Source: a virus (Duplodnaviria; Caudoviricetes). Taken from it: a DNA stretch of 64,000 nucleotides. A program made the position numbers and the translations under genes. Location of the stretch: positions 32,001-96,000 of IMG/VR virus record IMGVR_UViG_3300043093_000048. One strand, written 5' to 3'. This document shows, one piece after another, positions 2,539 through 64,000 of the stretch. The notes beneath the pieces were generated by a model. It saw only the letters and a list, made by a program, of their open reading frames with translations. It was not told the origin of the DNA and searched no databases. Position 1 is the first letter of the stretch. Every line of letters starts with the position of its first letter.

Positions 2539-4008
2539 ATGATTAATATCGCAAATAACAAAGAGTTTAATACTTTATTTAAAAAGATTAAACAGTCAAT
2601 AACAGAAGAAGGAGTTGAATATAGTTCTTTAGAGAATGATATGATTGAATTGTTTAATAATATGATAGCAGCAATAGAACTTGGAAAAGGTGATGAAGCT
2701 TTTGTAGGAATGTTTCTTCCAAAGATTAATAGAGTTTATGATTTCTCAGAACCATTTATTGCAGGAATTGCAATAATTAATGAAACTATAACTCTTAAAA
2801 TTAATCCACTATTATTCTTTAATATGTGTGATAGTTATGAAGACTTTGTAGTGGTTATTACGCATGAAATTTATCATTTGGTATTTAAGCATCTTAATAA
2901 AGAAAGAATGTTACCTAATCATAAGATTGATAATATATCTAAAGATATTTCTGTAAATCAATATATTAATTTTAGTTATGCTTGTTCTACTTTAAGAGAT
3001 GGTTGTTGTAAATTAGCAGATATTCAAGAATTAAATCCTGAACCTAAAAGAGAAAATGAATATTATTATGATTTAATAATTAATTCTAAAAATATCTTTA
3101 ATGATGGAAATGAAGAAAATAATAATGAAGATAAAAAGCTTAAAAATATGCTTAATGATTTAAAAGATCTAAAAGATAAATTAAATAATAATGACTTAAG
3201 TGAAGAAGAAAAAGAACAAATCGAAAATGATATTAAAGAATTAAAAGAAGAAATTAAAGATTATATTAAAGAACATTATAAAATAATGGATATTGATTAT
3301 TCAAATAATTCTTCTAATTCAGATGAAATAATTCTTAATGATTTAGTTGAAAGTACTCTTTCTGAAGCTAAAGAAAAAGGAAAGATTCCATCAAAAATTA
3401 AAGATACAATAGATGATCTTTATTATAAAAAGCCAATTATCAGTTGGAAGAAAGAATTAAGAAATATTGTTGGTAGTGTTCCTTGTCCGTATAAGAAAAC
3501 CATGAGAGTAAAAAATAGAAGACAACCTAGAAGAGCTGATCTTCTTGGAAAGGTAAATGATAGAAAGATTAGAATAGCTATTTGTATTGATACATCAGGT
3601 TCTGTTTCTAATGAAGAATTAAAATATTTCTTTAATGAATTATTTAATATTGTTAAAGATTATAATACTGAAATTACTTTAATTCAATGTGATAGTAGAG
3701 TTAACTCAGTAGATATTATTACTAATAAAAGAGATGTAAGCAAAATTGCTATTACTGGTAGAGGAGGAACTTGTTTTACACCTGCTTTTGAATATATTAA
3801 AGAAAATATTCCTAAGTATAAACAGCCAAACGTAATTATATATTTTACTGATGGTTGGGGTGAATCTACTATTAATCTTAAATATAAACCTATGGGAGAA
3901 ATTATGTGGGTTTTAACGGGAAATACTCATAATACATTATCTGTTAAAACTCCTGAATTTATTAAAAAGGTAAGACTTCTTAATATCGAAGGTAAAAAAT
4001 ATATTTAA
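2539..4008 (+). CDS. Metallopeptidase-like + VWA domain protein (DUF2201-like; usual partner of MoxR AAA+ ATPases)
   Basis: N-terminal HEIYH (HExxH); C-terminal MIDAS motif DTSGS, then GRGGT and YFTDG. Confidence 0.85.
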   Translation: MINIANNKEFNTLFKKIKQSITEEGVEYSSLENDMIELFNNMIAAIELGKGDEAFVGMFLPKINRVYDFSEPFIAGIAIINETITLKINPLLFFNMCDSYEDFVVVITHEIYHLVFKHLNKERMLPNHKIDNISKDISVNQYINFSYACSTLRDGCCKLADIQELNPEPKRENEYYYDLIINSKNIFNDGNEENNNEDKKLKNMLNDLKDLKDKLNNNDLSEEEKEQIENDIKELKEEIKDYIKEHYKIMDIDYSNNSSNSDEIILNDLVESTLSEAKEKGKIPSKIKDTIDDLYYKKPIISWKKELRNIVGSVPCPYKKTMRVKNRRQPRRADLLGKVNDRKIRIAICIDTSGSVSNEELKYFFNELFNIVKDYNTEITLIQCDSRVNSVDIITNKRDVSKIAITGRGGTCFTPAFEYIKENIPKYKQPNVIIYFTDGWGESTINLKYKPMGEIMWVLTGNTHNTLSVKTPEFIKKVRLLNIEGKKYI

Positions 4009-4114: not shown

Positions 4115-5323
4115 TTACCCACTAATATAATCGTCTATATTAATCTTTTTTAAGTGAACCGTACTATCATGGAAAGCTTTCATGCTACTATTTAAGATAA
4201 TACCACCTATTTCAGTAGTAAGTAATCCTATATTTTTACTTCCCATTTTATAATAATAATTTCCAGCACATTTATTACAAATTTTATCTCCTTTACAGAA
4301 TAATGGAGATCTCATCTTTACTAATTTATTAATATACTTTGATTTATTTTCATTATTTAATTCAACTAGTTGACCAGTTGTTGGATCTTTTATATAACGG
4401 AATTTAAATTTATTAAATATATCTTCAGTAAGTACAAATTCATAAAATAATTTAGTTCCACAATCAGAATTTTCTTCATCAAGAACTGATGACTGAAAAC
4501 TTGTAGTCATAATTTTATTTTGATAACCACCTTTTTGTGTTTCAACTGCTTTATTATATGTACCAGAAATACTCATATCACAATAATATTTAAACTCTTC
4601 TGGTTTAATTCCTTCATCTAGATTACTTGTAGATATATAACTTTCATTTGTAACGAAGTCTTTTACTGCTCCACGCATAATACTTGTATTTTTATAGTTA
4701 TTATCGAAACTACCACGACAACCACTATCATAAATTTGCATAGCAGGGCTATCTTTATATTCTTCTTTAGCTATATTTAATAATTCATTTTCAATTTTAG
4801 AAGTTACTACTAAATCACCATTTTTTATAGCTGTATCATTTTCTTTAATTAATTCTTTCTTACGTTTTTCTACTTTAGGATTAGTTATAATAAAATCAGC
4901 TGATAATGATGAATTAATAAATTTACCACAATAAAAACCAAACCAATTGACTTTATCTAAAAAGTCTCTAACTTCTTGCATATCAAGTTTATCTTCAGTA
5001 AATTTATCAATAATTTCACCTAATAATCCATTAATATTTTTACCAAAGGCTTTATTTTGATAACCAATCAATTTTCCTATATTTTCACTAAGTATTAATA
5101 AATTAAATATATATCTACCTACCGTAGTAGGCTCAGCTTTTTTATTATAAAGTTTTTCAGCAGGAAGAACAAAATAATCTTGTGGACAAAATTTAGGTTT
5201 TTTATTTTTAGTAAATGCAAAAAAATCTTCTAATAAAGGACCATTAACATCATCAGAAGTTAATTGTAATAATAATTTAATTTCTTCTTCACCAAGAGAT
5301 CTTCCTTTAATAACTTTTTCCAT
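4115..5323 (-). CDS. Phage multisubunit RNA polymerase beta'-like C-terminal subunit, probably virion RNAP
   Basis: Bridge-helix-like GGYQNK, DCGT, RSPLFC...ICNKCAG zinc site, trigger-loop-like MKAFH; late-type motif at 5351-5362. Confidence 0.85.
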   Translation of the reverse strand: MEKVIKGRSLGEEEIKLLLQLTSDDVNGPLLEDFFAFTKNKKPKFCPQDYFVLPAEKLYNKKAEPTTVGRYIFNLLILSENIGKLIGYQNKAFGKNINGLLGEIIDKFTEDKLDMQEVRDFLDKVNWFGFYCGKFINSSLSADFIITNPKVEKRKKELIKENDTAIKNGDLVVTSKIENELLNIAKEEYKDSPAMQIYDSGCRGSFDNNYKNTSIMRGAVKDFVTNESYISTSNLDEGIKPEEFKYYCDMSISGTYNKAVETQKGGYQNKIMTTSFQSSVLDEENSDCGTKLFYEFVLTEDIFNKFKFRYIKDPTTGQLVELNNENKSKYINKLVKMRSPLFCKGDKICNKCAGNYYYKMGSKNIGLLTTEIGGIILNSSMKAFHDSTVHLKKINIDDYISG

Positions 5324-5426
5324 ATAATATTCTCTCCTTTCAAAATTTAATAATTAATAGTTGTATGTCATATTTAAGTATATAACTTTAAAAAAGAGAT
5401 TTTTTATATTAAAATAAAATTAACAT

Positions 5427-5463
5427 AAAAATGGTATAAGGATTTAATCCTTATACCATTTTT
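5427..5463 (-). terminator. Intrinsic terminator
   Basis: Inverted repeat AAAAATGGTATAAGGA/TCCTTATACCATTTTT. Confidence 0.7.
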
Positions 5464-5482
5464 AATTAAAATCTATTAAAAA

Positions 5483-7198
5483 TTATAAACCATAATAATC
5501 TTCATAATAATCTTCGAAATAATCCATATCCATTTCTTCATACATTTCTGTATAATATCTAATTTCTTCCATATCATATTCATCAATATCATCAAAAGAT
5601 TCATAAATAGCTTCATAGAACTGTTCATTAAATTCTAATAAATCAGAATAATCATAATCTTCACAATAATAACCTAAAGATTCCTTTAATGATTTCTTTG
5701 CTTTTTGCATTGCTTTCCATTCTTCATAAGAAACCTTAGATCTCTTTCTAGGATTTTCAGCTACCCATTTTTCATATTGCTTCTTGTCATAAACTTTCTT
5801 ACCAGCAACAATACCTGTAGTAATAGCTGCTGCACCTGCTGCACCTGCTATCATTGCACCAGTATGTTTATTACCTGATTTTTCATCAGTTTTATTCTCA
5901 GTGCTTTTAGCAACTTTATTTGATGGAAGATTTGTATCAGTCTTAGGTGTAGGAGCGGAAGGTGTAGGAGCGGAAGGTGTAGGAGCGGAAGGTGTAGGAG
6001 CAGGAGTAGTCTTCTTTGGCTCTTCTGCAGCAGCAATAGCTCTACTATTAATTCTTTCAGCTTCCTCTCTTGTTTTAGTTTCAACACCTTTAAGAATTGG
6101 TGATGTTCTTCCTTCAGCATTTCTCTTTGCAACAACTTGATTACCAGCATCTTGACCTGGATTACCATTTCTTCTATTTTCTTTTTTCTGTCCTAAAACT
6201 TCTCCAGAAAATTCATCTCTTTTAGTTGATATATTATTTTTACTTCTGTTATAATGATCTGCTTTAGTTTCAGCTGTTTTTATTTTCTGTTTATTTCCAG
6301 ATTTTTTAGCACCTTCTAAGTTAGTATTAGCTTGTTTACTTCTATTCTCTTTAAATTCAGCAAGCTCTCCTGAATGAGTACTTGTTTGATTTGCATGTGT
6401 AATTGGTTTACCCTTTGGAGTATGTGTTGTTTGAGCTTTAATTCTATCTTCTAATGCCTTTTCTGGATCTTTTTCTCTATTTGAATTCTTTTGTTGTAAT
6501 CTTTGCTGTTGATCTTGATTTTTTTTCTTTGCTGCTTCTACTTCATCTCTTGTCATTCCAGTAGCTGCTGCAATTTTTGAAGTAGCTTTACCATTGGCAA
6601 TCATTTCTCTTTTCTTAGCAGCATCTCTTGACTGTTGAGTTGTTGCAGTGCTTCTTTCATCTGAATCTTTATTAAATTTATCTAAAGCAGCAGCTGCCTG
6701 TCTTTTTGATACATTTTTAAATTGATTGTCATAAACTTGTCTGCTTTGTGCACCAAAGCTAGCCATACTATTTTTATCCTTATCATGTTTTGTAGCATAG
6801 TAATCTTTTTTAACAGAAGCAGCACCAGTTAATTGGTTTCTTTGTTTATGTAAGTTAGCTAATTCTTTTTTTTCATAATCAGTTTTATTTTTTTTACGTT
6901 GTAATCTTTTAATTTCATCATCTAAGTCAGTTACTCTTTCATCAGTACCTGCTGCAGCATTTAAACGGTCAGTTAATGCATTTTCTGTTAAATAATCAAA
7001 TGCTTCTGAATAATAATCATAGAGTGCGTCATACATGCCTGCAATTGCAGCATCTTCATAAAAAGCATCTTCATAGAAATAATCATTTAAATCATCAGAA
7101 TATTCTGGATCATAATTTTCTATTAAATAATCATATGCTTCATTGTATATATATTCTTCATTTAATAAATATTCATATTCTTCATCGATATAAAACAT
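5483..7198 (-). CDS. Putative internal head/ejection protein (acidic ends, basic core, Gly/Ala hydrophobic segment)
   Basis: Y/D/E-rich termini with LNE/LTE/LKE sites, K/R/Q-rich core, PTPSA repeats, AGAAGAAAITTGIVAG segment. Confidence 0.6.
   Translation of the reverse strand: MFYIDEEYEYLLNEEYIYNEAYDYLIENYDPEYSDDLNDYFYEDAFYEDAAIAGMYDALYDYYSEAFDYLTENALTDRLNAAAGTDERVTDLDDEIKRLQRKKNKTDYEKKELANLHKQRNQLTGAASVKKDYYATKHDKDKNSMASFGAQSRQVYDNQFKNVSKRQAAAALDKFNKDSDERSTATTQQSRDAAKKREMIANGKATSKIAAATGMTRDEVEAAKKKNQDQQQRLQQKNSNREKDPEKALEDRIKAQTTHTPKGKPITHANQTSTHSGELAEFKENRSKQANTNLEGAKKSGNKQKIKTAETKADHYNRSKNNISTKRDEFSGEVLGQKKENRRNGNPGQDAGNQVVAKRNAEGRTSPILKGVETKTREEAERINSRAIAAAEEPKKTTPAPTPSAPTPSAPTPSAPTPKTDTNLPSNKVAKSTENKTDEKSGNKHTGAMIAGAAGAAAITTGIVAGKKVYDKKQYEKWVAENPRKRSKVSYEEWKAMQKAKKSLKESLGYYCEDYDYSDLLEFNEQFYEAIYESFDDIDEYDMEEIRYYTEMYEEMDMDYFEDYYEDYYGL
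5944..6005. repeat. 15-bp coding tandem repeat (about 4 copies, PTPSA linker)
   Basis: AGGTGTAGGAGCGGA repeated. Confidence 0.9.
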
Positions 7199-25247: not shown

Positions 25248-26799
25248 CATTACCATCATTATTCTTCACATAAGTTCGTTAATCTTATGCAGTTCTCTTA
25301 TGAACTTCTCTAGTTTTATTTATATCTAGAGTTGAGACTATATCTTCATAGAAAATATTTCTATGCTCCCCATTTCGATTTAATCAGGAATTACTGAATT
25401 ATTACTTCATACCTGAACCACTTGGCTCTACTCTACTCTCTTCTTCAATTATTCTTTAAGAATAATTTATGATTTCGATAGTCGTTGAACGTTACAAAAA
25501 AAAACTTCTTATAAAAAGAAGCTTTTTTGTCTTCGCTGCTGATTATCCTTATATAAAGGAGTTTCCAGCAATTAAAGGAGTTTATACTGAGCAACATTAT
25601 TCTTCGATTATTTCATAATTTTCATTTAAATATTTGTCTAAATTTTTAATATAATCTTCATCGTAGGAAAGTCTTAAAAGATCTTTATTATTTTCTTTAC
25701 ACCAATCATTTTTCATTTTATCATGTTTTTGAGTTAAAGATAATTTATTTTCATCTTTATACCAACCAGCTTCAAAATGTTGTTTTCCATCATATTCAAT
25801 AAGTAAATCATATTCAGTTAAGTAAAAATCAAATCTTAATAAATATTTATCTTTACAAGTAGAAAAAGTTTTTTCTTGAATATAATTTATATAATTATTT
25901 TCTAAATATTCTTTTATTTCCTTAACCGCTTTAGATTCTGAATTATGTAAATTACAACAAGGACATCTATTTCCTCCTAAGAAGTGAGTTGGTGTCATTT
26001 CAAATATATAATGATTACAATTATTACTATTATGTTGAAATTTTATTTTAGAGCTATTATTAATATAATCACTTATTACTATATATTCATCTTTAACTAA
26101 ATCATATACTTCTTTTTTAAACTTTTCAGTAGTTTTTAAGTGTGTTCCAAAACAATAAGGACATCTTCTACCACTTGAAAATGATTTTGGCTCTACATAA
26201 TAAATATTATTACATTTTTTATGACGTAATTTTACTTTAGTCTTACAATTAATATAATTACTTAATAATTCATAATCATCACCAATTTCTTTACTAAATG
26301 AATCAGTAGTTTTCTTTTTAAGCTTAGAACAATTAGGACATCTATGATTTTGATGTAAAAATTTAAAAGGTTTCATTTCAAATTCAGTATTACATTTATT
26401 ATGTTTCATTTTAATTTTATCATTAGTTGTTTTATATTCACCTAATACTTCATATTCATTTCCTACTAAATTATATATTTCTTTTTTAAATCCTTCAGTA
26501 GTTTTCTTAGGTGTTCCAAAACAATAAGGACATCTTCTACCTCTTAAAAAATCATTAGGTCTAGTTTCAAATTCAGTATTACATTTATTATGTTTCATTT
26601 TAATCTTAATTTTATTACTAACATATTCACCTAATACTTCATATTCATTTCCTACTAAATTATATATTTCTTTTACAAATTCTTTTTGTGTTTTTCTTTG
26701 TTGACAATAAGCCATATTAAACACTTCCTTTCACGAATATAATATATACGTAAAAGTTTAAACTAAAATTATTTTTTTAACCATCGATAATAACTTCAT
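25248..26799 (-). ncRNA. Group I intron (IA-like, P7.1/P7.2 extensions) in the prohead protease gene
   Basis: Minus strand: P UUGCUGGAAA, Q AUCAGCAG, R GUUCAACGACUA, S AAGAUAUAGUC; 5' exon ends in U, intron ends in G; P1 ACUGGGU/GCUCAGU. Confidence 0.9.
25597..26724 (-). CDS. Intron-encoded homing endonuclease (4 zinc-ribbon repeats + Vsr-like/EDxHD nuclease)
   Basis: Four KHxxC...RCPxC repeats; RFDFYL...IEYDGKQH; lies inside the intron. Confidence 0.85.
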   Translation of the reverse strand: MFNMAYCQQRKTQKEFVKEIYNLVGNEYEVLGEYVSNKIKIKMKHNKCNTEFETRPNDFLRGRRCPYCFGTPKKTTEGFKKEIYNLVGNEYEVLGEYKTTNDKIKMKHNKCNTEFEMKPFKFLHQNHRCPNCSKLKKKTTDSFSKEIGDDYELLSNYINCKTKVKLRHKKCNNIYYVEPKSFSSGRRCPYCFGTHLKTTEKFKKEVYDLVKDEYIVISDYINNSSKIKFQHNSNNCNHYIFEMTPTHFLGGNRCPCCNLHNSESKAVKEIKEYLENNYINYIQEKTFSTCKDKYLLRFDFYLTEYDLLIEYDGKQHFEAGWYKDENKLSLTQKHDKMKNDWCKENNKDLLRLSYDEDYIKNLDKYLNENYEIIEE

Positions 26800-52429: not shown

Positions 52430-53368
52430 ATGTCAAAAAAGTATACTATTGATGATATTAAAGAAATGATTTATAATAAATATAATGGAGAATATATTTG
52501 TTTATCAAATGAATATAAAAATAATAAAGAGAAAATTAAGATAAAGCATAATATATGTAATAATATATTTGAAATGAGAAGTGGTAATTTTTTAAATAAT
52601 AATAATCGTTGTCCTTACTGTAAGAATAAAAATGATGGAAAAACTAATAAAACAGTTACTAAAATGACTAAAGAAGATTTTATTAAACGTTTAGATAATG
52701 ATTATGAGTTAGTCAGTGATTTTATTAATTTAAAAACTAATGTAGACTTATTACATAAATCATGTGGTAATATTTATAATGTAAGACCCGATAATTTTTT
52801 ATATAATAATCATAGATGTGAATGTACTAGAGTTAAGCATAAATATACAATAGAAGATATTCAAAAGTATTTTAATAAAATAAATGACTATGAACTAATT
52901 TCTAAAGAATATGTCAATAAAAATGAAAAATTAAAAATTAAGCATTTATCATGTGATAATATATTTGAAATGTCATTAAATGATTTTAAGAATAATAATT
53001 ATAGATGTCCTAAATGTAAAGCATCTAAAGGAGAAAATAATGTAAGAACTTTTCTATTAAATAATAATATTAAATTTACTGAGCAAAAGCGTTTCAATGA
53101 TTGTAAAGATAAAAGAACTTTACCGTTCGATTTTTATTTAGAAGATTATAATATCTGTATAGAATATGATGGTGAATTACATTATAATAAAGCTAGATAT
53201 AAAAATGATGAAGAATATAATCAGGATAAATTAAATATTACTAAAAAACATGATGAAATTAAAAATGAATATTGTAGAGTAAATAATATAAGACTTATTA
53301 GGATTCCATATACAGAGTTTGGTAATATTGAAAAGATTCTTAAAAAGGAGTTGAATATTAATGCCTAG
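52430..53368 (+). CDS. Zinc-ribbon-repeat/Vsr-like endonuclease, tandem copy 1 (3 repeats)
   Basis: KHxxC...RCPxC repeats; LPFDFYL...IEYDGELH. Confidence 0.82.
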   Translation: MSKKYTIDDIKEMIYNKYNGEYICLSNEYKNNKEKIKIKHNICNNIFEMRSGNFLNNNNRCPYCKNKNDGKTNKTVTKMTKEDFIKRLDNDYELVSDFINLKTNVDLLHKSCGNIYNVRPDNFLYNNHRCECTRVKHKYTIEDIQKYFNKINDYELISKEYVNKNEKLKIKHLSCDNIFEMSLNDFKNNNYRCPKCKASKGENNVRTFLLNNNIKFTEQKRFNDCKDKRTLPFDFYLEDYNICIEYDGELHYNKARYKNDEEYNQDKLNITKKHDEIKNEYCRVNNIRLIRIPYTEFGNIEKILKKELNINA

Positions 53369-54095
53369 AAAATTAACTTATAAAGAAGTTAAAGATATTA
53401 TAGAAGAAAATGGTGAATATACTTTATTATCTAAAGAGTATTTAAATAATAGACAGCATTTATTAATAAGACATAATTGTAATAAATGTAATAATAATAT
53501 CTTTGAAAGAAGTCTTTATGTATTTCAAGCAGGTAAAAAATGTCATAAATGTGCTATAATAAATAGAACTAAATTAAAAACTAAAACTACTGAAGAATTT
53601 AAAGATGATATTAAAAGAATATTTAATGATGAAATGGAAGTTATAGGAGATTATAAAAATAATAAAACTAAAATATTAATGTATAGTAGAAAGTGTGGTC
53701 ATTATTTTGAAGGGTATCCTATAAATCTTTTAAAAGGTTGTGGATGTAATATATGTACTATAAGATCTAAAGGTAATGAAAAAATAGATTCTATATTAAA
53801 TGAATTAAATATAAATCATAAGTCTGAATATAAATTTGAAGATTGTAAATATAAAAGAACTTTATCATTTGATTTTTACTTAGAAGATTATAATATCTGT
53901 ATAGAATATGATGGAGAACAACATTATTCTAAGAATACTTTTAGATATGGTGAAAAATTTGAAGAACAACAAAAACGTGATAATATTAAGAATAATTATT
54001 GTAAAACAAACAATATAAAACTTATTAGAATTCCTTATACTGAATTCGATAATATTGAAAACATTCTTAAAGAGAATATAAAAGGAGAAAAATAA
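53361..54095 (+). CDS. Zinc-ribbon-repeat/Vsr-like endonuclease, tandem copy 2 (2 repeats)
   Basis: FDFYL...IEYDGEQH; start overlaps the previous gene. Confidence 0.82.
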   Translation: MPRKLTYKEVKDIIEENGEYTLLSKEYLNNRQHLLIRHNCNKCNNNIFERSLYVFQAGKKCHKCAIINRTKLKTKTTEEFKDDIKRIFNDEMEVIGDYKNNKTKILMYSRKCGHYFEGYPINLLKGCGCNICTIRSKGNEKIDSILNELNINHKSEYKFEDCKYKRTLSFDFYLEDYNICIEYDGEQHYSKNTFRYGEKFEEQQKRDNIKNNYCKTNNIKLIRIPYTEFDNIENILKENIKGEK

Positions 54096-59319: not shown

Positions 59320-61239
59320 TTAAGCATAAGTACCATCAAAACCACTTAATGTATTATTTTTCTTCTCATTGATCTTTGAAAATGGTGAATCTAATTTTAA
59401 TTCTAGTTTCTGCAATATTTTTTTATCACTAGAAACTTTCATTAATTTTTCCATTTTCTTTATTTGTTCTTGAATTTCTTTTTTCTGCTTCGGATTTAAT
59501 TTATCACCATTTTTATTTAATTCTTGTTTATATAATTCTAATATTTTTTTACATCTTGTAATATTAGAAGGATGACAATCTATAAAATACATTCCCATAT
59601 AAGATGTAAATAAAGTATATATTTTAGAAAGAGATGTAAGAACATCTAAAGAATTCATTGGATTATCTGAAATGGCTTCTAACCCAGTGTAGAGATCTTT
59701 ACCATAACCATGTTTAGCTGCAAAAGCATCTGCATATTTTTCAGCCTGATAGTCTAAAGTAAGAAGACCTGCTGAACCAACGTCTTTAAATAAAGATTTT
59801 ATTACTTTCATTAATATAATTTTAATAACTAATTTTATAGGTGTAAGTATTATATTTAATGTTTTATTAATTGCACCAAAGACTTCTCTAAAGCCACCAA
59901 TAATTTTATTAAATACAGTTAAATTAAGTTGTAATTTATCTCCAATAATATCATAAGATCCTGGATTAGATAACCAAACTAAAGTTTTATAAATAAATTC
60001 TTTTTGTTTAGTTGGAAGAAATTCTAATGGCATTTTAAATAATGTTTCAATTAAAAATTCTAATAAATCTTTTGTATATTCTCTAAAAGCACCTTCAGAA
60101 TTATTTAATAAAAATTTCCAAGTTATTTCTAAAATACCATCGACTATATTTTTACTACTATTATAACGAATATATTCTTTTCGTACAAAGAAATTATGTC
60201 CTATTTCATGAAGAAATATTGCATTAACTTCTTCTTTAGTAAGTTCACCTGTTAATAATTTAGGATAAATATAGATATTAATTTTTTTATCAGTTGAATC
60301 TTTAAATTTAATTCCTTCAGAATTTTCAACTAAATCATAATTCTGCTTTTTAGTTTTACTAGCAACATTAATCCAATTTATAGTAAAAGCATTTTGAACG
60401 CCATAATTACTACCAATATGAATATTTAATTTTTCTAAATTAAAATATTTTTCTAATTTAGCTTCAGCTTTTCTAATATCATTTTTATATTTATATGGAT
60501 TTTCATTATGACTAACTGCATAAATAAGTTTTTCCCATAATTCATCTTCTATTTCTTTCATTGTATTGGATTTTCCATAGAAAGCTTCATTATAATAATT
60601 ATCTTCTTTTAAACTTGTTGCAGTATTATAAGCTCCTAATCCAGTAGTGAAAACTGAAGCACCTGCAGCAATTGCTAATTGTTTATTTTGTTTCTTTAAT
60701 TCGTTAATTCTATTATTCTTCCAAATACTAAAGCTTTCTTTTGAACCAGATTGTTTATAAAGCTTTTTAGCTTCACTATTATTATTTAATAATTTTAATT
60801 CTTTATTATTTTTTACTAATGTTTTAAAACTATAAACAGATCCTGCAGCTCCTGCTCCAGTTATAGCTAAATTTTTAGATACTTTTCCAACATTTCTACC
60901 GTTTATATTGAAATTATTAAAATTAACATTTGATATGTTTGGAGCTATATATTTACCTTTTTTATTTAAAGTATTATAAGCTCCTAATCCAGTAGCTCCT
61001 ACTACACCTAAATTACTATATCTTAAATTTTTAATTTGTCCGTTTAAATACATTTTTCTTTCTGAAAGCCATTTAGAATAAGGTTTTTCACTTCCAGAAT
61101 CTCTATATATTTTTTTAGCTTCTGTAGGATTATTTAATAATTTTAATTCTTTTTTTAAATTAGCAAGTTCTAATGTATTAGCAGCACCTGCAGTAGCAGC
61201 CAAACCCATAGTACCTAATCCTATTTGTTGTCTAGTCAT
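59320..61239 (-). CDS. Zinc metallopeptidase (M48-like) fused to duplicated basic/hydrophobic head-protein modules
   Basis: HEIGH, EKYADAFA..HGYG, HPSN..R; two N-terminal KELKLLNN..EAKK.Y..SGS modules; late AACT motif 61271-61282. Confidence 0.7.
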   Translation of the reverse strand: MTRQQIGLGTMGLAATAGAANTLELANLKKELKLLNNPTEAKKIYRDSGSEKPYSKWLSERKMYLNGQIKNLRYSNLGVVGATGLGAYNTLNKKGKYIAPNISNVNFNNFNINGRNVGKVSKNLAITGAGAAGSVYSFKTLVKNNKELKLLNNNSEAKKLYKQSGSKESFSIWKNNRINELKKQNKQLAIAAGASVFTTGLGAYNTATSLKEDNYYNEAFYGKSNTMKEIEDELWEKLIYAVSHNENPYKYKNDIRKAEAKLEKYFNLEKLNIHIGSNYGVQNAFTINWINVASKTKKQNYDLVENSEGIKFKDSTDKKINIYIYPKLLTGELTKEEVNAIFLHEIGHNFFVRKEYIRYNSSKNIVDGILEITWKFLLNNSEGAFREYTKDLLEFLIETLFKMPLEFLPTKQKEFIYKTLVWLSNPGSYDIIGDKLQLNLTVFNKIIGGFREVFGAINKTLNIILTPIKLVIKIILMKVIKSLFKDVGSAGLLTLDYQAEKYADAFAAKHGYGKDLYTGLEAISDNPMNSLDVLTSLSKIYTLFTSYMGMYFIDCHPSNITRCKKILELYKQELNKNGDKLNPKQKKEIQEQIKKMEKLMKVSSDKKILQKLELKLDSPFSKINEKKNNTLSGFDGTYA

Positions 61240-61342
61240 TTATAGTAGCATCTCCTTTCCATATATTTAATAATTAAAAGTTTTTAATTAAAAACCCTAA
61301 TGAGTATTACACTCATTAGGGTTACTTTATATAATATTTATT

Positions 61343-61885
61343 TTATTCTTCGTATTCTACTTCTTCGCCTTCAGATGTATAGAACTTTCCATCAGAACCT
61401 TCCCATACATCATTTTCTTTATCAATGCATTTAATAAGTTCAATATCTTCTTCAACTTCATCTATTACTTCTTCATTATTATCTAAATTTTTATCAATAT
61501 ATAAAGAAGAATTTGGAATAAACTTTACATAGTTTTCTTTAATAAGATCAGCAACAGCTTTTCTTAATTTTTCATTCTCATTATACTTTTCTTTAAAAGT
61601 CTTTAGAGTAAATTTAACTTCAGGAAGTTTTTCTAAATAATAAGCTCTTGGAGAACCCTTAAGTAGTCCTAATTCCTTGAAATTAACTAAATTACTTAAA
61701 ACATTGTCAAAACCTGACGACTGTTCAAAAACCATTTCAAAAGTTCTTCCTGCTTCATTAGATCTTGACTTTATGAACTCACCTTTTACCATAAATCCTT
61801 TAACACCATAAGTTGAATCTTCATCAAGCTTTGTTGAAGTTGTACAACGAATGATATTATTGGCAAGGTATAGTATTGAAGAACC
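61343..61885 (-). CDS. recA: RecA/UvsX-like recombinase, exon 3
   Basis: Begins GSSILYLANNIIR, then IKSRSN; completes the ESIPG-G motif after splicing. Confidence 0.85.
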   Translation of the reverse strand, partial: GSSILYLANNIIRCTTSTKLDEDSTYGVKGFMVKGEFIKSRSNEAGRTFEMVFEQSSGFDNVLSNLVNFKELGLLKGSPRAYYLEKLPEVKFTLKTFKEKYNENEKLRKAVADLIKENYVKFIPNSSLYIDKNLDNNEEVIDEVEEDIELIKCIDKENDVWEGSDGKFYTSEGEEVEYEE

Positions 61886-63110
61886 CATAACTAGACTATA
61901 TCTTAATCCTTTATAAAAAAGGATCGCTCCCATTTCCATTTAATCTGGAATTATATGATTATTGCTCAATACCAGAACCCATTAATGGGCTGTACTCTAC
62001 TTCCTTCGTGTAAGTATTTCAACTTACCTTATTCTCTATATTATAGAGTTATATTTATTATTTGGTTTCGATAGTCGTTGAACTTAAAATTTTTTCAATA
62101 TTATCTTTATCAGAAATAGTTATAAAATTATAACCATATTTTAAAGCCAATTCTTTTTTATTTTTGTCTATAAGTTGTCTTTCTTCTAAATCTTTATCTG
62201 TCATATTCCATTTCTTTTTATAGTGTTGTTCACCTTGAAATTCTATTAATAAATTTTTAGATTCTATAAAAAAATCATATGGTTTATTAAATAAATATTT
62301 ATCTTCTTTGAGAATATAGTTATGAATATATTTTACATTATTATTATTTAAAAATTCTGAGATAAATTTTTCTCCTTTACTCATCTTAGACATTTTAGAA
62401 CATTCTTTACAACCTTGTCCTCTATAATGATGTAGCATATCCATCTCAAATTCACCATGAATTGGACAAATTATAATACTTTTTGTCTTTCCATTAATAT
62501 AATTAAATTTAGAATAATCATATTTATTATTATGGATTTTATTAGCTTTCTCTTTCCAATTAGTATTTCTTTGTTTATTTGCCATATTTTCTTTTCCACA
62601 TTTTGGGCAACCACATCCATTTAAATGAATACCAGCTACCATTTTAAATTCACCATGTTTAGGACAAATAATAATTACTTCAGAATGCCAACTTTTATAT
62701 TCAGCTTTAGAATAATCATATTTATTATTATGGATTTTATTAGCTCTTTCAACAAAAGAATTAGCACAATTTTTTACTCTAGAAATACTACATTTTCTTT
62801 TCTGATCAAGAATAGGATTTTTTCCTTTATACATTGAATCACAACCTTACTTTAATAAAATTATAAATTCATGTTAAAAGGTAGTAGATCCTTTTATTTT
62901 AAAATTTTTTAGATGCTGATAGTCAATTATAACGATACTTAGAATTTCTTCATATATCAACTTTTATATTTTTTCTGATTTTCATCAACATTCACGCTTA
63001 GAATTACTTCTTACGTTGTAGTTATAAAAGTATTATGACGTTCCAGCAATTAAGGAGCTTTATTTTTCGCAATGTTACCATTACGCCAGGCAGTTCGTTC
63101 ATTTTGTTCA
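61886..63110 (-). ncRNA. Group I intron 2 of recA (endonuclease in the P6 region; P9 apparently absent)
   Basis: P1 CCAGGU/GCCUGG, P10 GAACU/GGUUC, P2 with GUAA loop, P UUGCUGGAA, Q UCAGCA, R GUUCAACGACUA, S AAGAUAUAGUC, terminal G at 61886. Confidence 0.88.
62058..62834 (-). CDS. Intron-encoded homing endonuclease (KYDYSK...ICPxHGEF repeats + Vsr-like/EDxHD nuclease)
   Basis: Two repeats; PYDFF...IEFQGEQH; 3' end overlaps intron element R (SSTTIE); internal late motif 62864-62875. Confidence 0.85.
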   Translation of the reverse strand: MYKGKNPILDQKRKCSISRVKNCANSFVERANKIHNNKYDYSKAEYKSWHSEVIIICPKHGEFKMVAGIHLNGCGCPKCGKENMANKQRNTNWKEKANKIHNNKYDYSKFNYINGKTKSIIICPIHGEFEMDMLHHYRGQGCKECSKMSKMSKGEKFISEFLNNNNVKYIHNYILKEDKYLFNKPYDFFIESKNLLIEFQGEQHYKKKWNMTDKDLEERQLIDKNKKELALKYGYNFITISDKDNIEKILSSTTIETK

Positions 63111-63125
63111 ACCTGGAATACTTTC
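63111..63125 (-). CDS. recA: RecA micro-exon (exon 2), 15 nt: GAA AGT ATT CCA GGT = ESIPG
   Basis: Flanked by the terminal G of intron 1 and the U-G P1 pair of intron 2; restores the RecA ETTPGG-like motif. Confidence 0.85.
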
Positions 63126-63457
63126 CTTTAAATTTTCATATAAGGTCGTTAAGCTTATATCGTTCTCTTATGAACTGCTATATATTACTATATAGAAAAG
63201 ACTATATCTTCATAGAAAATATTTCTATGCTCCCCATTTCGATTTAATTAGGAATTATAAGATTATTACTCTAAACCTAAACCACTTGGCTCTACTCTAC
63301 TCCCTTCTTCAGCTATTCAATAATAGCTTATAGTTTCGATAGTCGTTGAACTTTTATTCTAAGAATTCTTAGAATACTTAGCTGCTGATTGTCCTTGTTT
63401 TAAGGAGTTTCCAGCAATTAGAGGAGTTTAGACAGGACTCAAGATTATCGTTGGTTA
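63126..63457 (-). ncRNA. Group I intron 1 of recA (332 nt, no ORF)
   Basis: P1 ACAGGAU/GUCCUGU; P, Q, R and S elements; P9 with GUAA loop; terminal G at 63126. Confidence 0.9.
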
Positions 63458-64000
63458 ATCCTGTTTGAGATAGTTTATTGCAGCTTGCGTCTTAGCAAAT
63501 GCATTTATCTCAATTTTTTGAGTTATATGGTTAATTGCAATTAAGATAATATTTCCTCTTTCAAGAGGACCTGCTAATCTCTTAATAATAGAATTATTAA
63601 TTCTTGCAATAGATGTTGCTGACATCTGACCACTTAATTCATCTTCTTCAGAAATCCCTTCAGGAATAGTTAAAGCCCAACTATCTAATAAAATTACTGT
63701 AGGTGGTAAAACATAAATAGGATTTCCATCACTATCTACTTCACCAGAATCTAACTTAATTTCATCATAAGTTTCAGGCTTATTCTTAAGCTTATCAATA
63801 GATTTAACTAATTTATAAATGCTTTCAGAATAAATATTTCTCTGAAGATTCTTATACTTCTTTTCAATAGTTTCATCAGACCAACCAGAAATAGTTTTAA
63901 CCCTAGAAACATTAGTTGCTCTTTCAAAGTCATAATGGAAAATATTACCATTCTCATATGGTTCAACAATAGAACAAGCCATCTTAATAGCTAACGAACT
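63458..64000 (-). CDS. recA: RecA/UvsX-like recombinase, exon 1 (5' end lies beyond the window)
   Basis: Open frame from the window edge (SSLAIKMA, end of Walker A); YDFE, Walker B ILLDSW, IAINHI. Confidence 0.85.

Follow-up and report, generated by a model that had tools for sequence, protein, structure and literature searches.

Analysis of a 64,000-nucleotide stretch of viral DNA (bases 32001-96000 of the IMG/VR virus record IMGVR_UViG_3300043093_000048, which has 265,109 bp and 24.8% G+C; hereafter the window) showed that a gene at its right end, on the minus strand, encodes a RecA/UvsX-type recombinase and is split by two group I introns; the virus is an uncultured AR9-like jumbo phage. 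The two introns are separated by a micro-exon of 15 nucleotides (nt), which encodes five residues of the DNA-binding loop L2 and which is found between the two larger exons in contigs from two metatranscriptomic runs. Very probably the introns are independent of each other and have separate histories in the gene, the micro-exon is retained, the recombinase is intact and the introns have spread by homing, the last being presumed.

The recombinase gene and its three exons

The tblastn searches showed that the open reading frames (ORFs) flanking the locus, 63455-64000 and 61343-61939, represent the N- and C-terminal halves of one protein. Its counterpart in AR9 and PBS1, two jumbo phages with uracil-DNA, is named 'UvsX-like recombinase' and showed 62-63% identity in exon 1 and about 40% in exon 3. 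Remoter matches were found in Listeria phage LPJP1, Staphylococcus jumbo phages (Machias and others) and Yersinia phage phiR1-37. Exon 1 (63458-64000, minus strand; 62% identity to AR9 g086) extends 192 nt beyond the end of the window and comprises 245 codons in total, the N-terminus being read from the genome; this outer part carries the Walker A motif GKSGSGKS. The match of the recombinase to the Pfam RecA family (PF00154) is weak and covers residues 102-165. Exon 3 (61343-61885, minus strand), assigned by homology to UvsX-like C-terminal halves, comprises 180 codons and a stop codon; it is 40-45% identical to the C-terminal halves of the AR9 and Staphylococcus jumbo-phage UvsX-like proteins and aligns with them from residue 1.

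The final codons of exon 1 are AAA CAG GAT (63458) and the first codons of exon 3 are GGT TCT TCA (61885). Matches of these two exons are exactly 15 nt apart in AR9, PBS1 and the Staphylococcus jumbo phages, and the gap is filled in the window by the five codons GAA AGT ATT CCA GGT. This is the micro-exon GAAAGTATTCCAGGT (63111-63125, minus strand), which encodes ESIPG of the RecA L2 loop and is documented by homologues, intron-free alleles and RNA contigs. Protein alignment showed that AR9 reads NYFKQD-ESIPG-GTSCIYLAN, and the intron-free homologues (AR9 and the metagenomic alleles L005 and L095, see below) have exactly five codons at the place of the micro-exon, encoding ESIPG or ESLPG. The predicted spliced protein has 245 + 5 + 180 = 430 amino acids (aa), that of AR9 g086 has 421 aa, and the predicted junction is YLKQD-ESIPG-GSSILY. 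Loop L2 would then read QDESIPGGSS, which fits the motif E-x-x-P/T-G-G. We take ESIPGG to be the equivalent of E-T-T-T-G-G in loop L2 of Escherichia coli RecA. For this loop see also PMC3239194.

A first-pass annotation, made from the letters of the window, had proposed two group I introns, a retained 15-nt micro-exon and the spliced peptide, and had placed ESIPG in the L2 loop. The coordinates, junctions and sequences given there all match the window; homology, RNA-family search, structure analysis and RNA contigs agree with the two introns, the micro-exon and the peptide, and the placing in L2 is supported by homologues carrying ESIPG at that position.

Joined exons in RNA-derived contigs

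Four metatranscriptomic runs from animal gut samples, belonging to four studies (X1 to X4), contain the locus, and their contigs were aligned to positions 61300-64000. In X1 and X2, from two studies, one contig each joins 63458 to 61885, and the letters at the joint are ACCTGGAATACTTTC, the exact reverse complement of the micro-exon. Across exon 1 (543 nt) the joined contigs showed 0 mismatches, and their full identity to the window extends over 543 + 15 + 30 nt. They represent the doubly spliced, exon-included product at the predicted junctions; the junctions 63458/63125 and 63111/61885 foreseen in the first-pass annotation are thus seen in assembled contigs of RNA libraries. The exon 1 contig of X1 and X2 continues straight into the spliced junction and does not stop at the end of exon 1. 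Both runs also contain intron sequences at 100% identity, and in both the unspliced 3' end of intron 2 is found joined to exon 3.

Contig depths and contig ends cannot rank the parts of the gene or show RNA ends. The depths in X2 (intron 1, 160; exons, 11) and the end of an X3 contig at G 63126 look like accumulation of the excised intron and were not used as evidence. Intron 1 contigs of two runs (X2 and X3) stop at 63446, 11 nt inside the 5' end, and one of them starts exactly at 63126; such ends would fit excised, perhaps circularised, intron RNA, although contig ends are not evidence of it.

Intron 1

Intron 1 (63126-63457, minus strand) is an ORF-less group I intron of 332 nt, identified by Rfam family RF00028 and by orthologues in the relatives L004, L006, L093 and L094. 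The RF00028 match scored 79.6 bits (E 7.6e-20; gathering score, 50 bits) and covered the whole model (model positions 1-253). P7.1/P7.2, P9 and P9.1 are present, P2 is absent and the terminal G is located at 63126. The internal guide sequence GUCCUGU (63432-63438, minus strand) pairs with the end of exon 1, ACAGGAU (63464-63458), to form P1 (ACAGGAU/GUCCUGU, 7 bp, -9.4 kcal/mol) with a U.G pair at the 5' splice site. P1 covaries in L093, where the exon reads GCAGAAU and the guide GUUCUGC, equivalent to two compensatory changes. The RNAalifold consensus of three orthologues recovered P1, P3, P4, P5, P7.1, P7.2, P9 and P9.1, and double (compensatory) changes were found in 14 of its 82 pairs. The terminal G stands directly before GAAAGT in all four intron 1 orthologues with a readable 3' end (window, L006, L093 and L094). 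A 3' end 11 nt earlier, suggested by L006, was rejected: it would give a stop codon, and L093 and L094 share the extra tail.

Pairing of intron 1 with the micro-exon to form P10 was not detectable, the best duplex having -0.2 kcal/mol and 83% of shuffled exons being as good. P10 is dispensable in many group I introns, so its lack is no bar to the membership of intron 1 in this class.

The P6 element of intron 1, UAUUCUAAG-AAUU-CUUAGAAUA (63355-63376, minus strand), is a perfect hairpin located exactly where L004 branches into its ORF, and it is the site of a 0.9-kb endonuclease ORF in relatives. The L004 intron is identical to that of the window up to CUAAG and then enters the ORF, while in L006 an 11-bp P6 encloses an ORF of 316 aa. 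Intron 1 of L004, L006 and L094 thus contains a P6-closed endonuclease ORF, and that of L093 and of the window does not. The statement in the first-pass annotation that intron 1 has no ORF therefore holds for the window, but not for the orthologues at the same site in L004, L006 and L094, which carry their own endonuclease. Since same-site orthologues in relatives carry the ORF, the intron 1 of the window is an ORF-less deletion derivative of an intron that is common in the gene lineage.

Introns of AR9 and PBS1 show 73-74% identity to intron 1, and that of AR9 is located inside an RNA polymerase beta' gene. A search of the genome from which the window is taken gave nine matches at E<=1, and one paralogue is 86% identical to intron 1 over 237 nt. 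Further RF00028 matches and intron-1-like sequences are located at 25316-25619 of the window (genome C1:57316-57619) and at genome C1:143924-144282, 123333-123569 and 2870-3114. The phage is very rich in introns.

Intron 2

Intron 2 (61886-63110, minus strand), likewise of group I, is 1225 nt long; its P5 is extended, P9 is lacking and the P6 loop contains an endonuclease ORF. Its internal guide sequence (63086-63096, minus strand) consists of GAACU, which pairs with GGUUC of exon 3 (P10), followed by GCCUGG, which pairs with CCAGGU (P1); this order is canonical and sets exon 3 beside the micro-exon. P1 (CCAGGU/GCCUGG, 63116-63111 with 63091-63086, minus strand) has 6 bp and -9.4 kcal/mol, with U.G at the splice site. 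P10, GGUUC(UUCA)/(UGAA-C-)GAACU, has 9 bp with one bulge and -7.0 kcal/mol, and 0.9% of shuffles were as good. Exon 3 follows P7' after just 8 nt, UAGUUAUG, and the strong P10 may make up for the missing P9. P1 helices ending in U-G and a terminal G, which the first-pass annotation had described for both introns, are present in both (terminal G at 63126 and 61886).

Reading of the sequence located the P2 hairpin CGUAAUG-GUAA-CAUUGCG (63068-63085, minus strand), and folding together with Kayvirus homology located the 5' strand of P3, P4, the extended P5 and P4' (62914-63058, minus strand). P3 is formed by 63058-63053 with 61931-61926 and P4, UGCUGG/UCAGCA, by 63048-63043 with 62919-62914 (both minus strand); the P5 extension of approximately 120 nt folds. 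The 3' catalytic core (61886-62083, minus strand) comprises J6/7-P7, the P7.1/P7.2 hairpins, P3', P8, J8/7-P7' and the terminal G, with P7 GACUAU at 62076-62071, P3' at 61931-61926, P8 at 61923-61907, P7' AUAGUC at 61899-61894 and the terminal G at 61886. The core P3-P8, J6/7, J8/7 and the guanosine-binding helix P7 were thus all located, and in the right order.

The J6/7-P7 (21 nt) and J8/7-P7' (12 nt) blocks of intron 2 are identical to those of intron 1, while P3, P8 and P7.2 pair through sequences that differ from intron 1, in P8 and P7.2 by compensatory changes. The P3-P6 domain was alike in 81% of aligned columns to that of the first tail-tube intron of Staphylococcus phage phiIPLA-RODI, which is recognised by Rfam with 33 bits and shows a G-C to A-U exchange in P4 relative to intron 2. 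By these comparisons intron 2 is a mosaic of a Kayvirus/Twort-type P3-P6 domain and an AR9-type P7-P8 catalytic core.

On both sides of the ORF-bearing P6 insert of intron 2 lies a 12-nt direct repeat, AAAAAAUUUUAA (62899-62910 and 62084-62095). P6 could be formed by the self-complementary core of this repeat, AAAAUUUU, or the repeat may mark the borders of the endonuclease cassette. An exact 24-nt search for the P1-P2 segment of intron 2 in IMG/VR gave no second copy. Intron 2 was found in none of the contigs of relatives that were scanned, and the nearest endonuclease relatives in IMG/VR are at most 56% identical.

The endonuclease of intron 2

The ORF in intron 2 (62058-62834, minus strand) is a homing endonuclease gene encoding 258 aa, with two DUF723-like zinc-ribbon repeats and a C-terminal Vsr/EDxHD nuclease domain. 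The protein matched PHROG families 559, 9084 and 7140, annotated as homing or intron-encoded endonucleases (phrog_559, E 1e-47); homologues, some annotated as 'Hef-like', occur in 836 phage records, and its own genome contains about 15 paralogues. Among 30 homologues the C-terminal residue E198 is invariant and E155, D187, H204 and D223 are conserved in at least 90%, and all are present in the protein of the window. The two N-terminal repeats follow the pattern KYDYS...CPxHGxF...GxGCxxC, with Cys and His invariant or nearly so in the same 30 homologues, and gave a weak Pfam match to DUF723. NUMOD or helix-turn-helix (HTH) repeats, as present at the N-terminus of I-Bth0305I, were not found in the 258-aa protein.

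The AlphaFold model of this protein has a pLDDT (predicted local distance difference test) of 89.6. The top folds of the Protein Data Bank (PDB) retrieved by Foldseek were Vsr (1cw0_A, E 2.9e-3) and I-Bth0305I (3r3p, E 3.3e-3), both with probability 1.00, and the match to the catalytic domain of 3r3p has a template modelling (TM) score of 0.65 by target with 20-22% identity. Neither I-Bth0305I nor Vsr was found among PDB sequences by phmmer or by a 30-sequence profile, the match being obtained by fold search only. A weak sequence alignment with I-Bth0305I lines up the E-D-x-H-D motifs, roughly. On these grounds we assign the protein to the Vsr-like EDxHD family, its DNA-binding module being different from that of I-Bth0305I. 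Its activity and target are presumed, by analogy, to resemble those of I-Bth0305I; that enzyme cleaves recA only where the intron is absent, adjacent to the insertion site in L2 (PMC3239194).

A motif of the AR9 late-promoter type, AACA-N6-TA (consensus from PMC5312081), is located 30 nt upstream of the endonuclease start (62875-62864). No weight was given to it, because the motif occurs 100 times in the window and 118 times are expected by chance.

Alleles of the gene in related phages

Scans of IMG/VR and of metagenome contigs of JGI/ENA retrieved eight close relatives. Alleles L005 (exon 1 92% identical) and L095 (81%) are intron-free, the uninterrupted sequence of L005 being CAGGAT GAGTCTATTCCTGGT GGTTCT. 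L006 (79%), L093 (80%) and L094 carry an intron at the first site only, the second site being unoccupied. L004 (exon 1 99% identical) has the first-site intron, and its contig ends inside this intron.

One contig of X4 represents an allele without intron 2; it equals the window along 70 nt of exon 1 and along 126 nt of exon 3. At the intron 2 site (63111 and 61880-61885) it reads GGC GGA AGT as opposed to GGT/GGT TCT in the window (the slash marks the insertion point), which corresponds to four synonymous changes within seven bases in one contig of depth 2.5. Judged from its sequence, this allele cannot host intron 2 as it stands, because the changes abolish P10 and eliminate the U that takes part in the U.G pair. 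The T at the intron 2 site is also absent in L094, L095 and L006. The X4 site may be ancestral or endonuclease-resistant.

In L004 (IMGVR_UViG_3300035495_000372, 4759-6546) the Walker A motif is split by an intein of approximately 350 aa, GKSGSGK/AQPLY...VTHN/TSLAIK (slashes marking the intein borders), which has a LAGLIDADG domain (PF14528, E 1.3e-14); the window carries no intein. Across the phage clade, the recombinase gene is therefore host to one intein as well as two introns.

The gene downstream of the recombinase (59320-61239, minus strand) encodes 639 aa with repeated N-terminal segments (…LKLLNN.-EAKK.Y..SGS…) and a HEIGH zinc-protease-like motif.

Proposed mechanism of splicing and mobility

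We propose that two independent mobile group I introns have entered the codons of the L2 loop, one after Asp245 and one between the two Gly codons of ESIPG/G. With a guide sequence of its own and a P1 ending in U.G, each ribozyme would find the 5' splice site that belongs to it and would leave by the usual two transesterifications, presumably as protein-free self-splicing; the 15-nt exon would stay in the mRNA, and the product would be the 430-aa recombinase with its L2 loop intact. Intron 1 would be an old resident of the gene lineage that lost its endonuclease gene in this phage, and intron 2 a rarer, mosaic intron with a strong P10, no P9 and an intact Vsr/EDxHD-type endonuclease gene. The two introns are separable units: intron 1 is found by itself in relatives, and both introns possess a guide sequence of their own.

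The first-pass annotation had supposed that most of the micro-exon is needed for P1 of intron 2 and P10 of intron 1, and that this constrains the order of splicing. Our analysis gave a different result: only nucleotides 10-15 of the micro-exon are used, for P1 of intron 2, and nothing measurable is used for P10 of intron 1. As the pairings in the micro-exon do not overlap, base pairing imposes no order of splicing, and steric or folding effects of the 15-nt linker on that order are possible.

The endonuclease of intron 2 would presumably cut alleles lacking this intron near GG/GG and so spread intron 2 by gene conversion, and intron 1, only 15 bp away, would travel along by co-conversion. Co-conversion tracts in phage homing are long. 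Co-mobilisation of intron 1 by the endonuclease of intron 2, as suggested at the outset, is plausible by analogy with such systems. The central 14-bp specificity of I-Bth0305I suggests that the 15-nt exon together with exon 3 could suffice as a target; if so, intron 2 could invade an allele that already carries intron 1.

Alternative explanations

Several observations weigh against the proposal of two independently spliced introns. The joints come from assembled metatranscriptome contigs, from libraries that may contain DNA and have no DNA run for comparison, and the joint covers no more than 30 nt on its shorter side; in X1 one contig spans the unspliced 3' end of intron 1, the micro-exon and the 5' end of intron 2. 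Intron 2 has no P9, unlike most group I introns, and remains below the RF00028 gathering score: its 3' core gave 19.3-20.7 bits (E 0.085 to 0.0023) as compared with 50 bits, the values of 20.7 bits and E 0.0023 being those of the 3' core searched alone. The 5' half of intron 2 (62835-63130), searched alone in Rfam, gave chance snoRNA-like matches only. The similarity of the 258-aa protein to the I-Bth0305I sequence of the 0305phi8-36 record is weak (BLASTP, E 0.013; hhalign, E 0.0057, probability 6.4%), and the Foldseek E-values for the endonuclease are about 3e-3. With regard to the ribozyme, intron 2 fails the Rfam cut-off because of the 0.9-kb ORF insert in P6 and the missing P9, the search with the 5' half is uninformative because a covariance model cannot score half of a pseudoknotted core, and absence of P9 is unusual but not a defining feature. 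The lack of a DNA control, the weak Rfam score and the missing P9 would also fit joined contigs derived, as DNA or transcript, from an intron-free variant of the same phage, with one or both introns, especially the P9-less intron 2, not splicing and this copy of the gene being dead; alleles free of introns or of intron 2 do exist in nature (L005, L095 and the X4 variant). This is distinctly unlikely in our view. The joined contigs equal the window throughout their exon sequence, whereas the known intron-free alleles differ from it by 8-20%; since all of them differ by at least 8%, an otherwise identical intron-free strain is an unlikely source of the joints, judging by the sequences. Moreover, X1 and X2 also contain the introns themselves, at 100% identity, their exon 1 contigs enter the spliced junction without stopping, the three exons are in an open frame, the endonuclease has kept its catalytic residues, and the P1 and P10 pairings of intron 2 are precise.

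The two introns might instead behave as a coupled unit, with a fixed order of removal or mutual help in splicing, and some transcripts might skip the 15-nt exon to give a recombinase minus five L2 residues that is altered or dominant-negative. We hold this to be unlikely; if true, it would be a case of ribozyme-made alternative splicing used by a phage. On a separate, composite reading, a single twintron or tandem unit would be removed in one piece, leaving ESIPG out of the main product and making the 15 nt a pseudo-exon; this seems highly improbable to us. Every joint found includes the 15 nt, and no direct joint of 63458 to 61885 is listed among the contigs, which drop rare variants and so do not show its absence. 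In addition, ESIPG is kept in every intron-free homologue, within the L2 DNA-binding loop, and the lone intron 1 of relatives ends precisely before GAAAGT, so the elements are separable. The intervening sequence of a twintron is missing from the mature RNA; here the 15 nt are present in the joined RNA contigs and in intron-free alleles. Skipping would, as the first-pass annotation had pointed out, preserve the frame (15 = 5 x 3), the end of exon 1 can form 4 bp with the guide of intron 2 (-6.3 kcal/mol), the unspliced X1 contig mentioned above fits a unit removed whole, and passages of PMC11878797 document exon skipping by tandem phage group I introns in Twort orf142 and SIOphi. There is an equally slight chance that the introns depend on each other, the P9-less intron 2 requiring the RNA of intron 1 or a fixed order of removal, and intron 1, having neither P10 nor an endonuclease, requiring intron 2 for accurate ligation or mobility. 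The defects are complementary (no P10 and no ORF in intron 1, no P9 in intron 2), the spacing is just 15 nt and intron 2 was found solely in an allele that also carries intron 1. Intron 1, however, does not need intron 2, because orthologues with an equally weak P10 stand alone in L006, L093 and L094; P1 and P10 use separate segments of the micro-exon, and no result obtained here favours RNA-RNA contacts between the introns.

Comparison with known systems

The recA intron of Bacillus phage 0305phi8-36, which encodes I-Bth0305I (PMC3239194), likewise interrupts a phage RecA-family gene at the start of L2. According to the junctions in its record, exon 1 ends with TTC GGT GAT (FGD) and exon 2 starts with PNVTTGG, so that the site FGD/PNVTTGG and the intron 1 site of the window, KQD/ESIPGG, are at the same place within a one-residue indel. 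The endonucleases of 0305phi8-36, of intron 2 of the window and of intron 1 of L006 are all of the EDxHD Vsr-like type. The ribozymes of 0305phi8-36 and the window, on the other hand, have only universal core motifs in common; the I-Bth0305I ORF is located in P5 (PMC3239194) and the ORFs of the window clade in P6; I-Bth0305I has N-terminal NUMOD/HTH repeats and the window protein DUF723-like zinc-ribbon repeats; and the recA gene of 0305phi8-36 has one intron, that of the window two. For the intron 2 site, between two Gly codons, no counterpart was found in the comparison of insertion sites.

Among other phages, Twort orf142 (tail tube) contains three close group I introns in one gene, with exon skipping reported according to a citation in a passage of PMC11878797. 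In phiIPLA-RODI the first tail-tube intron is followed by a second RF00028 match after an exon of approximately 75 nt, about five times longer than the micro-exon, in another host gene. The Kayvirus tail-tube intron has P9 and lacks P7.1/P7.2, whereas intron 2 of the window shows the reverse. The two RF00028 matches in phiIPLA-RODI (L097:1748-2413, equivalent to 52964-53629 of KP027446.1) scored 33 and 49 bits and lie in an unannotated gap after the 'tail tube' coding sequence; these matches, which the record does not annotate, probably correspond in Kayvirus to the introns of Twort orf142. Passages of PMC11878797 also describe, in Bastillevirinae phage phiNIT1, a small exon between two self-splicing introns that was found only by cDNA reads, in other genes and another family, and skipping of an internal exon in SIOphi (in the terminase according to one passage, in the polymerase according to another); skipping was not seen in the contigs of the window locus.

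The recombinase of the AR9/PBS1 clade is 40-63% identical to that of the window, which belongs to the same phage clade. AR9-like and Staphylococcus jumbo phages carry many group I introns and inteins in core genes, several per gene being possible and the positions varying (bioRxiv 10.1101/2020.12.14.422802). The UvsX-like gene is nevertheless uninterrupted in AR9, PBS1, LPJP1 and the Staphylococcus phages, in contrast to the window. In fungal mitochondria, the Ophiostoma introns cob-201/219 are group I introns 18 nt apart that raise the same question of one unit or two (PMC12308204). These are organellar group IB introns with LAGLIDADG ORFs, and their 18 nt are maybe a duplicated pseudo-exon; the 15 nt of the window, in contrast, genuinely code for protein and occur both in RNA and in alleles free of introns. 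As regards mobility, trans-homing by mobE and I-TevIII of T4, in which an endonuclease-defective intron is mobilised by the break made by a neighbouring endonuclease, offers a parallel (PMC2790892). According to that source the T4 helper is a free-standing gene beside the intron-bearing gene, whereas here the helper would be a second intron 15 bp away.

Biological significance

The tandem introns described here are a tidy example, though one with precedents, of how selfish introns accumulate in a single gene. Particular to this case are the 15-nt exon with direct RNA support, the interruption of a UvsX-type gene that is uninterrupted in all cultured relatives, the P9-less mosaic intron, a RecA L2 site used for the second time by elements of the EDxHD type and a range of natural alleles that is unusually complete. 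A plain ORF call yields the recombinase as two unrelated-looking ORFs and misses five essential L2 codons, and the same annotation trap is likely to be common in jumbo-phage metagenomes. The 15-nt exon between two ribozymes also offers a compact natural test bed for the folding of neighbouring introns, splice-site choice and avoidance of exon skipping.

For the phage clade, the alleles capture the stages of selfish elements in one gene, namely no intron, intron 1 with or without its endonuclease, both introns, a recoded intron 2 site and, in a 99%-identical relative, a P-loop intein. They also supply a second example, independent of the first, in which EDxHD-type homing endonucleases favour the RecA L2 loop as a landing site.

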